A stretch of 9,605 nt of DNA, from the IMG/VR virus record IMGVR_UViG_2706794696_000003. One strand, given 5' to 3'. The position numbers and the translations under genes were made by a program. Of this stretch, positions 3,816 through 9,496 are shown piece after piece; positions within the stretch are counted from its first letter, which is position 1; each line of letters starts with the position of its first letter. The stretch is from a virus (Duplodnaviria; Heunggongvirae; Uroviricota; Caudoviricetes). The notes under the pieces were generated by a model that searched no databases, was not told the DNA's origin, and was given only the letters and a program-made list of their open reading frames with translations.

Positions 3816-3892
3816 GGCCCTTTAGCTCAGTTGGTCAGAGCGAGCGACTCATAATCGCCAGGTCGCTGGTTCAAGTCCAGCAAGGGCCACCA
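3816..3892 (+). tRNA. tRNA-Ile2 type (genomic anticodon CAT, ileX/ileZ-like)
   Basis: 77 nt. Cloverleaf folded by hand: acceptor GGCCCTT / AAGGGCC, anticodon loop CTCATAA, T-loop TTCAAGT, 3' CCA encoded. Overall sequence resembles the lysidine-modified Ile2 tRNA, not elongator Met. Confidence 0.8.
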
Positions 3893-3893
3893 A

Positions 3894-3970
3894 CCACCAC
3901 TAGCTCATCCGGATAGAGCATCAACCTTCTAAGTTGACGGTGCGAGGTTCGAGTCCTCGGTGGTGGGCCA
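3894..3970 (+). tRNA. tRNA-Arg (anticodon TCT, reads AGA)
   Basis: 77 nt. Acceptor CCACCAC / GTGGTGG, D-stem GCTC/GAGC, anticodon stem TCAAC/GTTGA with loop CTTCTAA, T-arm CGAGG-TTCGAGT-CCTCG, 3' GCCA. Begins 1 nt after the previous tRNA. Confidence 0.85.
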
Positions 3971-3972
3971 GC

Positions 3973-4048
<76 letters not shown>

Positions 4049-4051
4049 TAT

Positions 4052-4126
<75 letters not shown>

Positions 4127-4254
4127 GCGAGATTTGAGACGAAGGTTGTTATTTGCACTGACACAATATTGTGTGGGAATGTCTGACTCCTTACCATCTC
4201 CTGTTCTGTGATGTTGTTTTGTTGCAGTTCCAGTGCTCTTTTTTCAGCACCAGA

Positions 4255-4449
4255 ATGGTGCATTGTCNNNNNNNNNNNNNNNNNNNNNNNNNNNNNNNNN
4301 NNNNNNNNNNNNNNNNNNNNNNNNNNNNNNNNNNNNNNNNNNNNNNNATTGGTGTGCTGGGAAGTCTGCTTCTGGGGCTTCTGACTTATCTGACAAATCT
4401 GTATTTCAAAATAAGAGAAGACAAGCGTAAGGCTGCGAGAGGTGAATAA
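4255..4449 (+). CDS. S: class II holin / pinholin (phage 21 S-like), interrupted by an N-run
   Basis: The post-gap segment 4348-4449 encodes [33 protein letters not shown], matching the C-terminal half of the phage 21 S pinholin as recalled; its stop overlaps the endolysin start (TAATG). The N-terminal part lies in or before the N-run. ATG 4255 is in frame only if the gap length is exact, so the start is provisional. Confidence 0.55.
4268..4347. other. run of 80 N (assembly gap or masked bases)
   Basis: Directly visible in the sequence. It falls inside the holin coding region. Confidence 0.99.
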
Positions 4450-4946
4450 TGTCGCCATCATTACGCAAGGCTGTTGCAGCTGCTATTGGTGGTGGGGCTG
4501 TTGCTATAGCATCTGTGTTAATCACTGGCCCAGGTGGTAACGATGGTCTGGAAGGTGTCAGCTACATACCATACAAAGATATCATTGGTGTATGGACTGT
4601 ATGTCACGGACACACCGGAAAAGACATCATGCTCGGTAAAACGTATACCGAAGCAGAATGCAAAGCCCTCCTGAATAAAGACCTTGCCACTGTCGCCAGA
4701 CAAATTAACCCGTACATCAAAGTCGATATACCGGAAACAACGCGCGGCGCTCTTTACTCGTTCGTTTACAACGTGGGCGCTGGCAATTTCAGAACATCGA
4801 CGCTTCTTCGCAAAATAAACCAGGGCGATATCAAAGGCGCATGTGACCAGCTACGTCGCTGGACATATGCTGGCGGTAAGCAATGGAAAGGGCTGATGAC
4901 CCGTCGTGAGATTGAGCGTGAAGTCTGTTTGTGGGGGCAGCAATGA
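4449..4946 (+). CDS. R: SAR endolysin (phage 21 R-like lysozyme with N-terminal signal-anchor-release domain)
   Basis: 165 aa. Hydrophobic Gly/Ala-rich N-terminus ([20 protein letters not shown]) followed by a lysozyme-like domain; near-identical to the phage 21 endolysin as recalled. Coupled to the holin (TAATG) and to Rz (ATGA). Confidence 0.9.
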
Positions 4947-5407
4947 GCAGAGTCACCGCGATTATCTCCGCTCTGGTTATCTGCATCATCGTCTGCCTGT
5001 CATGGGCTGTTAATCATTACCGTGATAACGCCATTACCTACAAAGAGCAGCGCGACAAAAACGCAAGAGAACTGAAGCTGGCGAACGCAACCATTACTGA
5101 CATGCAGCAGAGACAGCGTGATGTTAATGCACTCGATGCTAAATACACGAAGGAGTTAGCTGATGCGAAAGCTGAAAATGAAACTCTGCGCGCTGATGTT
5201 GCCGCTGGTCGTCGTCGGTTGCACATCAAAGCAGTCTGTCAGTCAGTGCGTGAAGCCACCACCGCCTCCGGCGTGGATAATGCAACCAGCCCCCGACTGG
5301 CAGACACCGCTGAACGGGATTATTTCACCCTCAGAGAGCGGCTGATGACGATGCAGATGCAACTGGAAGGGGCACAGGAGTATATCCGCACTCAGTGCAT
5401 TAAGTAG
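4943..5407 (+). CDS. Rz: Rz i-spanin (inner-membrane spanin subunit)
   Basis: 154 aa. N-terminal transmembrane helix ([18 protein letters not shown]) followed by a coiled-coil periplasmic domain; very similar to lambda Rz as recalled. Start ATG 4943 overlaps the endolysin stop. Confidence 0.9.
5163..5345 (+). CDS. Rz1: Rz1 o-spanin (outer-membrane lipoprotein), embedded in Rz in the +1 frame
   Basis: 60 aa. Lipobox LVVVGC followed by a proline-rich segment (PPPPPAW); lies entirely within Rz in a different frame, the classical embedded-spanin arrangement. Confidence 0.85.
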
Positions 5408-5449: not shown

Positions 5450-5800
5450 ATGCCATCACTAATCCCACGTGCCTGCCGTAAGCGTGGATGTGCAGGTACA
5501 ACCACAGACAGTTCGGGTTACTGCGATAAACATCGCGGTGAAGGCTGGGTGCAGCACCAGCGCGGACTGAGCCGCCACCAGCGTGGCTATGGCTCAAAAT
5601 GGACGGTGATTCGTGCCCGTATTCTGAAGCGCGATAAAGGTCTGTGTCAGTTGTGTCTGCGTGTCGGTGTGGTGAGCGAGGCGAAAACCGTCGACCACAT
5701 CATCCCGAAAGCGCATGGCGGAACAGACGCAGACAGCAACCTGCAGAGTCTGTGCTGGCCCTGCCATAAAGCGAAAACAGCGCGCGAACGAATCCGGTGA
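5450..5800 (+). CDS. HNH endonuclease (packaging-associated, HK97 gp74-like)
   Basis: 116 aa. Cys-rich zinc-binding pairs (CRKRGC, CDKH, CQLC, CWPCH) and the HNH motif (DHIIPKAHGG...N). GAGGT ribosome-binding site 4 nt upstream. Located immediately upstream of the terminase genes. Confidence 0.9.
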   Translation: MPSLIPRACRKRGCAGTTTDSSGYCDKHRGEGWVQHQRGLSRHQRGYGSKWTVIRARILKRDKGLCQLCLRVGVVSEAKTVDHIIPKAHGGTDADSNLQSLCWPCHKAKTARERIR

Positions 5801-5880: not shown

Positions 5881-5921
5881 TTATACCCGCGAAAAATGAA
5901 ATTTAACCAGGAGTGCCGCAT

Positions 5922-6416
5922 ATGGCTGGAACGGCGGGGCGTTCCGGGCGTCGCCCCAAGCCAACGGCGCGCAAGGCGCTGGCCGGAAACCCCGGCAAGC
6001 GAGCCCTGAACAAAGATGAACCTGTTTTTACGCCCATCAAAGGTGTTGAGCCACCAGAGTGGTTCGCTGAAGAAGATCTCCCTCTCGCCACGATCATGTG
6101 GCAACTGACAACCAAAGAACTCTGCGGTCAGGGCCTGCTGTGCGTGACTGACCTGGCGGTACTTGAGCGGTGGTGCGTGGCCTATGAGTTCTGGCGACGT
6201 GCCGTGAAAAATATTGCCATACAGGGCAACACCATCACCGGTGCAATGGGCGGCAGGGTCAAAAATCCGGAGCTGACCGCCAAAAAAGAACAGGAGTCCG
6301 AGATGAGCAGCACGGGGGCAATGCTCGGACTCGACCCCAGCAGCCGCCAGCGTCTGATTGGCCTGGCGGGGCAGAAGAAAGCCACTAACCCGTTTCTGAA
6401 AATTATCGAATCATGA
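5922..6416 (+). CDS. terminase small subunit (P27 family)
   Basis: 164 aa. N-terminus [27 protein letters not shown] is typical of P27-family small terminases. AGGAG at 5909-5913, 8 nt before ATG 5922 (ORF track used GTG 5913). Stop overlaps the large-subunit start (ATGA). Confidence 0.85.
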
Positions 6417-8146
6417 GCCGGAAATCTTACCCCAACGTAAATGCTGCAAATCAGTATGCCCGGGATGTCGTGCGCGGAAAGATTGTTGCCTGCCAGTTTG
6501 TGATTCAGGCCTGCCAGCGCCATCTTGATGACCTGATGGCGGAAAAAAGTAAGTCGTTTCGTTACCGCTTCGACAAGGACCTGGCTGAACGGGCCGCGAA
6601 ATTTATTCAGCTGTTGCCGCACACCAAGGGGGAGTGGGCATTCAAACGGATGCCCATCACGCTGGAGCCGTGGCAGCTATTTGTGATCTGCTGTGCGTTT
6701 GGCTGGGTCAATAAAGGCACCCGGTTGCGCCGCTTCCGGGAGGTGTACACCGAAATCCCCCGTAAGAACGGCAAATCAGCAATCTCTGCCGGTGTTGCCC
6801 TGTATTGTTTTGCCTGTGATAACGAGTTTGGCGCGGAAGTGTATTCCGGTGCCACGACAGAGAAACAGGCGTGGGAAGTCTTTCGCCCGGCGCGACTGAT
6901 GTGTAAACGCACACCCATGCTGACGGAAGCGTTCGGGATTGAGGTTAACGCCTCAAACATGAACCGTCCGGAGGATGGCGCGCGGTTTGAACCGCTGATC
7001 GGCAACCCAGGTGATGGTTCATCACCCCACTGTGCCGTGGTTGATGAATATCACGAGCATGCCACCGATGCGCTTTATACCACAATGCTTACCGGGATGG
7101 GGGCGCGACGTCAGCCACTGATGTGGGCCATCACCACCGCCGGGTACAACATTGAGGGGCCGTGCTACGACAAGCGGCGGGAAGTCATCGAGATGCTCAA
7201 CGGCTCGGTGCCTAACGATGAACTGTTCGGGATCATCTATACCGTTGATGAAGGTGACGACTGGACCGGCCCGCAGGTGCTGGAAAAAGCCAATCCAAAT
7301 ATTGGCGTGTCGGTTTATCGCGAATTTTTGTTAAGTCAGCAGCAGCGTGCGAAAAATAACGCCCGTCTGGCAAACGTCTTTAAAACAAAACACCTCAATA
7401 TCTGGGTGTCGGCGCGTTCGGCGTATTTCAACTTGGTGAGCTGGCAGAGCTGCGAGGATAAATCACTGACCCTTGAGCAGTTCGAGGGGCAGCCGTGCAT
7501 TCTGGCCTTTGACCTGGCGCGTAAGCTGGATATGAACAGCATGGCGCGACTTTATACCCGCGAGATTGACGGTAAAACGCATTACTACAGTGTGGCCCCG
7601 CGTTTCTGGGTACCGTATGACACGGTGTACAGCGTCGAGAAAAATGAAGATCGACGGACAGCCGAACGCTTTCAGAAATGGGTGGAAATGGGCGTTCTGA
7701 CCGTTACCGATGGTGCGGAGGTGGATTATCGCTACATCCTCGAGGAGGCCAAAGCGGCGAACAAAATCAGCCCGGTCAGTGAGTCACCCATCGACCCCTT
7801 CGGGGCGACCGGGTTGTCACATGACCTTGCTGATGAAGACCTGAATCCCGTCACTATCGTCCAGAACTTCACCAATATGTCCGATCCGATGAAAGAGCTG
7901 GAAGCAGCGATTGAATCGGGACGTTTTCATCATGACGGCAATCCCATCATGACCTGGTGTATCGGCAACGTGGTCGGCAAAAACATGCCGGGTAACGATG
8001 ATGTGGTGAAACCCGTCAAAGAGCAGGCGGAAAACAAAATCGATGGTGCAGTTGCGCTGATTATGGCGGTTGGCAGAGCCATGCTGTACGAGAAAGAAGA
8101 CACGCTGTCTGACCACATTGAGTCCTACGGGATCCGCTCGCTTTAA
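6413..8146 (+). CDS. terminase large subunit
   Basis: 577 aa. Walker A-like motif (PRKNGKS), an acidic ATPase motif (VVDEYHEH) and a C-terminal nuclease-like region; classical position after the small subunit with translational coupling. Confidence 0.95.
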
Positions 8147-8157
8147 CTGAGGTAATT

Positions 8158-8340
8158 ATGATCATGCTGATTCTCGCGCCTCTGGTGGGCGTGCTGGGTG
8201 CGCTTTTGCTGGCGTATGGTGCCTGGCTGATTTATCCCCCGGCGGGTTTTGTTGTTGCCGGGGCGCTGTGCCTGTTCTGGTCGTGGCTGGTGGCGCGATA
8301 TCTCGACCGTACACGGCAGTCTGTCGGCGGAGGTAAATAG
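8158..8340 (+). CDS. small membrane protein (60 aa, two predicted transmembrane helices)
   Basis: GAGGT at 8149-8153, 4 nt before ATG 8158. Two hydrophobic stretches ([21 protein letters not shown] and [16 protein letters not shown]) with a basic C-terminus. Its stop overlaps the predicted portal start. Confidence 0.5.
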
Positions 8341-9496
8341 TGTTCTTTTCGGGATTATTTCAACGAAAAAGCGATGTGCCGGTGACCACGCCAGCAGAAC
8401 TGCTGATGCTATCGGGCTGTCATACGACACCTATACCGGAAAGCGGATCAGTAGCCAGCGGGCCATGCGCCTGACGGCGGTCTATTCTTGCGTCAGGGTG
8501 CTGGCAGAGTCTGTTGGTATGCTGCCCTGCAGTCTCTACAAAATCAGCGGTACCCTGAAAACACGGGCGGTGGATGAACGACTGCATAAGTTGGTTTCGG
8601 CAAAACCTAATGGCTACATGACACCGCAGGAATTCTGGGAGCTGGTTATTGTCTGCCTGTGTCTACGGGGGAATTTTTACGCCTACAAGGTAAAGGCACT
8701 GGGAGAAGTGGTGGAGCTTCTTCCGATAGATCCGGGCTGTGTGGAACCGAAGCTGAACAGCCAGTGGCAGCCGGTTTATCAGGTGACGTTTCCGGATGGT
8801 TCCGTGGATGTGTTGACCCAGAATGAAATCTGGCATGTGCGCACCCTGACGCTGGATGGACTTGTCGGGCTGAATCCCATTGCGTATGCGCGTGAGGCCA
8901 TTTCACTGGCAGCGGCAACCGAGGAGCACGGTGCCAGGTTGTTTAGTAATGGTGCGGTGACATCCGGTGTGTTGCGTACGGAACAAAAGCTCACGCCGGA
9001 TGCTTACGAGCGTCTGAAGAAAGATTTTGAGGAGTGTCACACGGGGCTTGGCAATGCTCACCGCCCGATGATTCTGGAAATGGGGCTGGACTGGAAGTCG
9101 ATGGCGCTGAACGCCGAGGACAGTCAGTTCCTGGAAACCCGCAAGTTTCAGCTGGAAGAAATCTGTCGTCTGTTCCGGGTGCCGTTGCACATGGTGCAGA
9201 ACACCGATCGCGCCACCTTCAACAATATCGAAGAGCTGGGGCTGGGATTTATCAACTATTCACTGGTGCCGTATCTGACCCGCATCGAACAGCGGATCAA
9301 CACCGGACTGGTACGAAAAAGTAAGCAGGGCGTTTATTACGCCAAATTTAACGCCGGGGCGTTACTGCGCGGGGATATGAAGTCCCGTTTTGAAGCCTAC
9401 GCCACCGGGATCAACTGGGGAATTTACTCTTCCAATGACTGCCGCGACCTGGAAGATATGAATCCGCGTCCCGGTGGTGTAATGCCGATCAGTTAA
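8340..9496 (+). CDS. portal protein (HK97 family), with an apparent -1 frame discontinuity near the 5' end
   Basis: The main ORF (frame of 8249-9496) carries the conserved portal core from about QRAMRLTAVYSCVRVLAESVGMLP. A strong ribosome-binding site (GGAGG 8329-8333) precedes GTG 8340, which opens a 44-codon frame ([26 protein letters not shown]...) ending at TGA 8472-8474. The main frame has no ATG, GTG or TTG between 8340 and ATG 8465. The span 8340-9496 is 1157 nt, not a multiple of 3. Confidence 0.8.

Follow-up and report, generated by a model that had tools for sequence, protein, structure and literature searches.

A portal-paired ymfR-family gene in P27/HK97-type head-packaging modules encodes a predicted inner-membrane hairpin with a possible role in head assembly

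The stretch of viral DNA analysed here, hereafter the window, is 9,605 nucleotides long (Caudoviricetes; IMG/VR record IMGVR_UViG_2706794696_000003) and carries a packaging module in which a 60-codon open reading frame (ORF) lies between the gene for the terminase large subunit (TerL) and that for the portal protein (Table 1). The same HNH-first order of genes is found in phiP27, in E. coli ATCC 11775 and in Azospirillum phage Cd. The ATG of the small ORF is placed 11 nt past the TerL stop codon (TAA, 8144-8146), and the GAGG element of its Shine-Dalgarno sequence is retained in enterobacterial homologues. A preliminary description of this DNA had reported such an ORF, with a good ribosome-binding site, between TerL and the portal gene, and this is confirmed. 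The GGAGG ahead of the portal start is also present in related loci, and in phiP27 and E. coli ATCC 11775 the portal is annotated from the GTG at the position equivalent to 8340.

Table 1. Features of the packaging module and the lysis cassette in the window
Feature	Position	Strand	Basis and remarks
Lysis cassette	~4234-5407		Phage_holin_2_1 holin (partly masked), Phage_lysozyme, Phage_lysis/Rz-type; ~3 kb upstream of the small ORF
Lysozyme gene of lysis cassette	4449-4946		Hydrophobic N-terminus
Rz-type gene of lysis cassette	4931/4943-5407		
HNH endonuclease gene	5450..5800	+	PF01844, E 1.6e-16; head of the packaging module
Terminase small subunit gene (P27 family, Terminase_4)	5913..6416	+	PF05119, E 3.9e-20; RefSeq naming in homologous locus; same operon
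Terminase large subunit gene (TerL)	6413..8146	+	PF03354 and PF20441; PHROG 9
Shine-Dalgarno TGAGGT of ymfR-family ORF	8148..8153	+	5 nt before ATG, 1 nt past TerL stop; read from sequence
ymfR-family gene (PHROG 502)	8158..8340	+	ATG start, 60 codons, TAG stop; predicted 60-aa inner-membrane helical hairpin
Shine-Dalgarno GGAGG of portal gene	8329..8333	+	Within the Gly58-Gly59 codons of the small ORF
Ancestral portal GTG start	8340..8342	+	One base in common with the small-ORF stop (TAG, 8338-8340)
Portal pseudogene (PF04860)	8340..9479	+	Pfam E 3.3e-107 on the shifted frame; aligned to phiP27 and ST64B

The portal gene of the window is broken. Alignment with phiP27 and ST64B reveals the loss of one base between 8401 and 8402, and from about 9479 onward the sequence no longer resembles intact portals but the end of an IS4-family element. 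In a chromosome 98.6% identical to this DNA, an IS4-type transposase gene lies directly downstream, followed by host genes (bamE, recN-like). Gene callers start the portal of the identical chromosomes at an internal ATG (about 8465 in the window). A TTG-initiated ORF (8249-9496) was also considered as the true portal start and was rejected as a product of the 1-bp deletion. The coupling of the small ORF to the portal start, as proposed in the preliminary description, is upheld as the ancestral arrangement, with its one-base overlap with the GTG; it does not work in the window, where the portal frame is broken between 8401 and 8402.

Stretches of CP104423.1 and CP022457.1 (chromosomes of ~4.8-4.9 Mb) match the window at 100% identity, and no complete E. 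coli genome was >=99% identical to positions 7900-8700, the best listed being at about 91%, with one record at 95-99%. The prophage is a decayed remnant without head or tail genes, and its copy of the small gene is therefore probably a functionless leftover. Upstream of the packaging module, the lysis cassette is complete and contains an embedded ORF (5163-5345) with a lipoprotein-like start that resembles Rz1. A run of 80 N (4268-4347) replaces about 653 bp of the identical chromosomes (L193, 1538-2190), including the start of the holin gene, and four tandem tRNA genes (Met-CAT, Arg-TCT, Thr-TGT, Gly-TCC; 3816-4126) lie just upstream of the cassette.

By profile match and by the naming of its homologues, the small gene is ymfR, a prophage gene that already bears this name and belongs to PHROG 502 ("membrane protein"). 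Its product matches the PHROG 502 profile with E 2.8e-28, residues 1-55 aligning to profile positions 3-57 of 58. RefSeq gives the name "ymfR: protein YmfR" in homologous loci of E. coli genomes with 91%-identical DNA, and the homologue in E. coli ATCC 11775 (WP_000605604.1) sits between the terminase large subunit and the portal. DNA similar to positions 7900-8700 is present in 1604 of 5426 complete E. coli genomes (about 30%). Annotations of phiP27 (L37), ST64B (Sb3), SfI, SfII (SfII_03) and other phages describe its product as a (putative integral) membrane protein, and the window copy differs from the phage copies by 1-3 residues. In the e14 prophage of E. coli K-12 the order is aaaE (a terminase remnant), ymfR and beeE (a portal remnant). 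The e14 YmfR has the same 60-aa length as the phage members of PHROG 502 and a stop codon that likewise overlaps the portal start, and nothing of substance differs between them. L37, Sb3, SfII_03, e14 YmfR and gp30 of Azospirillum phage Cd all belong to one family and occupy one slot between TerL and portal; in phage Cd the order runs HNH, small terminase, TerL, membrane protein, portal, protease and capsid. A membrane gene in a head operon, which the preliminary description had regarded as unexpected, is therefore no anomaly: ymfR has a name, and its presence is the rule in P27/HK97-type head modules.

The family is broad. A profile of it, searched against 1.84 billion representative proteins, matched 411 clusters at 50% identity (E <= 1e-3); among the best 148 of the 411, the median length was 61 aa and 90% fell within 40-90 aa. 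All distant members tested map to phrog_502, and each of two peptide patterns recovered >550 IMG/VR contigs. The 191 loci that were collected cover 37-70% G+C. Members carry only the source names "hypothetical", "prophage" or "membrane protein", and PHROGs places family 502 in the category 'moron, auxiliary metabolic gene and host takeover'. Pfam, NCBIfam and PADLOC (the last at E <= 1) returned no family for the small ORF, and sequence and fold searches of the PDB gave nothing meaningful, a 60-aa hairpin carrying little fold information. The literature searched (ymfR, Sb3, terminase-portal membrane proteins and P27-family modules) contained no functional study of any family member; a preprint on TerI was set aside as concerning an unrelated Listeria system. 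The ymfR copy of the window itself matters little, being named, annotated, common in E. coli and located in a dead prophage. The family is of note as a very widespread small membrane protein, consistently paired with the portal, for which no function has been reported.

Some database records label or omit the gene in other ways. PQ793804, ON470584, ON470603 and ON470580 give the ORF the name 'head-tail joining protein W', while the SfIV records KC814930 and NC_022749 leave it unannotated despite 94% identity at the protein level. The gpW protein of lambda is a soluble head-completion protein. YmfR is by contrast a hydrophobic hairpin, and it shares with gpW only small size and the location of its gene, between those for the large terminase and the portal; the label looks like an annotation by position.

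The predicted protein has hydrophobic stretches at residues ~2-25 and 29-47 (maxima of the Kyte-Doolittle 19-residue means, 2.67 and 1.81), with a YPPAG turn between them and a basic tail after the second. AlphaFold2, supplied with an alignment of 29 family members, returned with moderate confidence a helical hairpin consisting of helices 2-25 and 27-57 (mean pLDDT 74.5, pTM 0.46). Across 53 diverse relatives, the segment before helix 1 holds 1.08 K/R against 0.13 D/E, K/R occurs within the first eight residues of the tail in 96% of members, and the four-residue turn is nearly without charge. This positive-inside pattern, together with the nearly uncharged turn, predicts an N-in/C-in topology with the turn at the periplasmic face. 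We infer that the protein is a tight two-helix inner-membrane hairpin with both ends in the cytoplasm. The two-helix membrane protein of the preliminary description is thus upheld as a prediction by hydropathy, the AlphaFold2 hairpin and the charge pattern. Conservation in the family falls on the helices, which are rich in glycine and aromatic residues, and on the periplasmic turn. Glycines are spaced on one face of each helix, and the turn motif GAWxIYxPAG is shared by the window protein and its relatives, including those just 30-50% identical.

Small size, transmembrane helices and a charged C-terminus are generic traits of holins and are not diagnostic. The pinholin S21 of phage 21 is likewise a short protein that crosses the membrane twice, keeps both termini in the cytoplasm and has a charged C-terminus. 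A holin-like or lysis-timing function, comparable to that of a class II holin or pinholin, had been suggested in the preliminary description, and the size of YmfR, its two helices with glycine-rich faces, the predicted cytoplasmic location of its ends and its charged tail all agree with the general description of such proteins. However, the gene lies outside the lysis cassette and not beside the endolysin gene; the prophage possesses its own Phage_holin_2_1 gene, adjacent to the endolysin, together with lysozyme and Rz/Phage_lysis genes. YmfR also matched no Pfam or PHROGs holin family at E <= 1, and a lysis function would leave the strict pairing with the portal without a rationale. A lysis role is thus weakened by these data and appears highly improbable.

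The association of the small gene with the portal was followed in the 191 loci, in which TerL and portal homologues were located by iterated profile search. By automatic judging, the portal lies directly downstream of the small gene in 185 of the 186 loci with enough downstream sequence; in the sole exception (L138) the portal is fragmented, and with this locus counted the portal follows in all 186. TerL lies directly upstream in 172 of 184 judgeable loci, and in all 30 genomic loci (from assemblies of Enterobacterales, Halomonadaceae and others) the small gene is found between the two. Insertions separate TerL from the small gene in nine loci, and in these the small gene stays joined to the portal start. 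In two loci (L053 and L058; 2072-2950, - strand) a 292-aa SAM-methyltransferase-like ORF lies between TerL and the small gene, leaving the overlap with the portal untouched. Of 123 non-redundant loci, 97 have a 1-nt overlap between the small-gene stop and the portal start, and in 116 the distance between these codons falls between -12 and +10 nt. With the portal ribosome-binding site in the last codons of the small ORF and this one-base overlap, ribosomes finishing the small ORF would be placed to start on the portal.

Such an arrangement raises the question of whether the ORF is a leader only, the translation of which serves coupling to the portal while the peptide itself has no function. The overlap, and the location of the portal Shine-Dalgarno inside the ORF in most loci, would agree with this. 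Further, the C-terminal "GG" of enterobacterial members coincides with the portal GGAGG, and the overlap of that element with these codons is the simplest explanation for their conservation. The rest of the ORF behaves otherwise. Its median pairwise dN/dS is 0.28 (Nei-Gojobori), and in the helical core (residues 6-47) pN/pS is 0.36 with codon-position entropies of 0.68/0.39/1.32, a classic coding signature in which the second position is the least variable. The tail (residues 48-60) is nearly neutral (pN/pS 0.82). These substitution patterns place the helical core under purifying selection at the amino-acid level and indicate that the cytoplasmic tail evolves almost freely. In addition, the turn motif persists in distant relatives, and length and topology are kept across the 411 clusters (lengths from the best 148). 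A bare leader function is therefore the least probable of the explanations considered here.

The reading frame is intact in 29 of the 30 diverged genomic homologues. The single disrupted copy (L014, Shigella flexneri CP182557.1, 3001-3216) has a frameshift that extends its product to 71 aa and beyond the portal start, between TerL and portal genes that look intact. An antisense ORF (8143-8430, 95 aa) was rejected, its frame being closed in most diverged homologues. Checked for conservation and synteny, as the preliminary description had proposed, the small ORF stands up well, with an open frame, coding-like substitutions and a fixed slot before the portal. On these comparative grounds, it is a genuine late gene of the P27/HK97-type head-packaging module.

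Pairwise comparisons indicate that divergence of the small protein tracks the portal and not TerL. The identity of the small protein correlates with that of the portal with a Pearson coefficient of 0.76 (partial coefficient 0.61 controlling for TerL), and with that of TerL with a coefficient of 0.60 (partial 0.20 controlling for portal). Similarly, where TerL is >85% but the portal <50% identical, the small proteins are only ~27% identical, while in pairs with portals >70% but TerL <50% identical they are ~54% identical. Proximity alone fails to explain this asymmetry, because the gap to TerL is also just about 11 nt. Part of the co-inheritance of the small gene and the portal may nevertheless be due to their overlapping signals rather than to contact between the two proteins.

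Phage SfV (L003, NC_003444) offers a further comparison. Its TerL is 98% identical to that of the window, but its portal is just 28% identical, and the slot between them (2289-2450) holds an unannotated 53-aa two-helix ORF. This ORF occupies the same slot as ymfR and overlaps the stop of TerL at one end and the probable start of the portal at the other, although it is without the YPPAG turn. It matches PHROG 7105 (E 3.2e-22), PHROG 502 (E 5.7e-6) and the family profile (E 2.4e-6), as a distant relative of YmfR, a relationship that pairwise BLASTP left undetected. SfV presents a direct view of a swap, in which small ORF and portal have both been replaced while TerL has been kept. The annotated portal start of SfV (2392) falls inside the small ORF; a GTG at 2440, just before the ORF stop, looks better.

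Linkage to and co-variation with the portal, along with expression together with the head genes, would also be expected if YmfR were a minor virion or ejection protein, located near the portal and inserted into the inner membrane of the next host during DNA entry. At 60 aa, however, the protein is a hairpin of extreme hydrophobicity that lacks any soluble domain; solved phage structures contain no related chain, and no report from virion proteomics was found in the literature searched. We consider a virion location very unlikely.

The category assigned by PHROGs, and the suggestion in the preliminary description of an exclusion or abortive-infection factor, point instead to a moron-type gene of benefit to the lysogen, for example one encoding a superinfection-exclusion or abortive-infection membrane protein. 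A precedent for morons within structural operons exists: HK97 gp15 is described as a moron-encoded inner-membrane exclusion protein inside the tail operon, and morons are described as independent transcription units (PMC3594210). YmfR resembles gp15 in being a small membrane protein embedded among structural genes, and the gene is kept in decayed prophages such as e14 and the window. Retention in remnants can, however, be ascribed to very recent decay, since other chromosomes carry the sequence of the window at 100% identity. An independent transcription unit would be expected of a moron, yet a consensus scan of the + strand found neither promoter- nor terminator-like sites near the small ORF; the closest promoter-like site on that strand is weak and lies inside TerL (7617-7645). 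The distribution of the family is fixed and coupled to the portal rather than patchy across the 186 judged loci (portals lacking the gene having been checked in HK97 only), the protein has no match in PADLOC, and its sequence follows the portal. Further, SOS-inducing conditions raise the ymfR mRNA of e14 (log2 fold change 4.5) along with the transcripts of the rest of that prophage, a behaviour that looks like that of a lytic gene. A moron function is accordingly improbable. Without signals of its own or a match to defence or holin families, and with a separate lysis cassette present, YmfR lends support neither to the exclusion and abortive-infection readings nor to the holin reading.

The observations on linkage and divergence are in best agreement with a portal-linked accessory of head assembly that would act at the inner membrane. 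In such a role, YmfR could bring synthesis of the portal, or initiation of the portal ring and prohead, to the inner membrane; alternatively, it might set the amount of portal that is made. In T4, genes 40 and 20 (the latter encoding the portal) are not neighbours. A functional analogy can still be drawn with gp40 of that phage, as a phage factor for assembly of the portal at the inner membrane; the likeness would be one of role and not of sequence. The membrane-bound gp20 portal initiator of T4 has been described as dependent on the viral chaperone gp40 (PMC9958956).

We hold this proposal tentatively, at somewhat less than an even chance, for several reasons: conservation is concentrated in the membrane helices and the turn, between distant hosts the portal has diverged further than the small protein, HK97 lacks the gene, and no fusion of hairpin and portal was seen among the 191 loci. 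Only short segments with little conservation face the cytoplasm and would be open to binding by a soluble portal. Between Enterobacterales and Halomonadaceae loci, the small proteins are 46-58% identical and the portals about 38%, which fits a conserved host partner, or self-assembly, at least as well as a portal partner. HK97, the only case of a portal without the gene that was examined (by hand), has no gene between TerL and portal; heads of the HK97 type can therefore assemble without the small protein.

The first three of these reasons favour the main rival, in which YmfR is a late membrane effector acting on the membrane or on a conserved inner-membrane component of the host (e.g. an insertase, a protease or processes dependent on the proton-motive force). 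It would then have no direct part in portal assembly, and its position before the portal gene would be an arrangement for expression or linkage only. Selection on the helices and the periplasmic turn, with a nearly neutral tail, is what such an effector might show. The divergence of the protein nevertheless follows the portal even when TerL is controlled for, and in 186 loci the gene is never parted from the portal start, though insertions occur just upstream. A host effector is accordingly rather unlikely, and the portal-linked accessory is retained as the working proposal.

To our knowledge, a membrane-bound step in head initiation is documented only for T4 (gp40/gp20); it has not been shown for HK97-type phages and is unsuspected for assembly in the lambdoid style. 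If YmfR were indeed a membrane-side helper of the portal or prohead, a membrane step would be added to a head pathway usually described as cytoplasmic, and the database label 'moron' for the family would be corrected. The more general proposition, that temperate HK97/P27-type phages of Proteobacteria direct portal synthesis or prohead initiation to the inner membrane by means of a dedicated 60-aa membrane hairpin, made from the same mRNA just ahead of the portal, is at present an unlikely one.

A MAG assigned to 'Bacillota bacterium' (L005, JAEWTL010000102.1) contains TerL, ymfR and portal DNA of the enterobacterial type at about 96-99% identity, as does the 1764-bp record OR844959.1 ('Enterococcus phage Efm 3-10'); the Gram-positive labels of both are likely due to contamination or mislabelling. 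Four representative hits of 100-120 aa (P0159, P0190, P0192 and P0203) each contain two stretches that match the family profile, which suggests tandem-duplicated hairpins.
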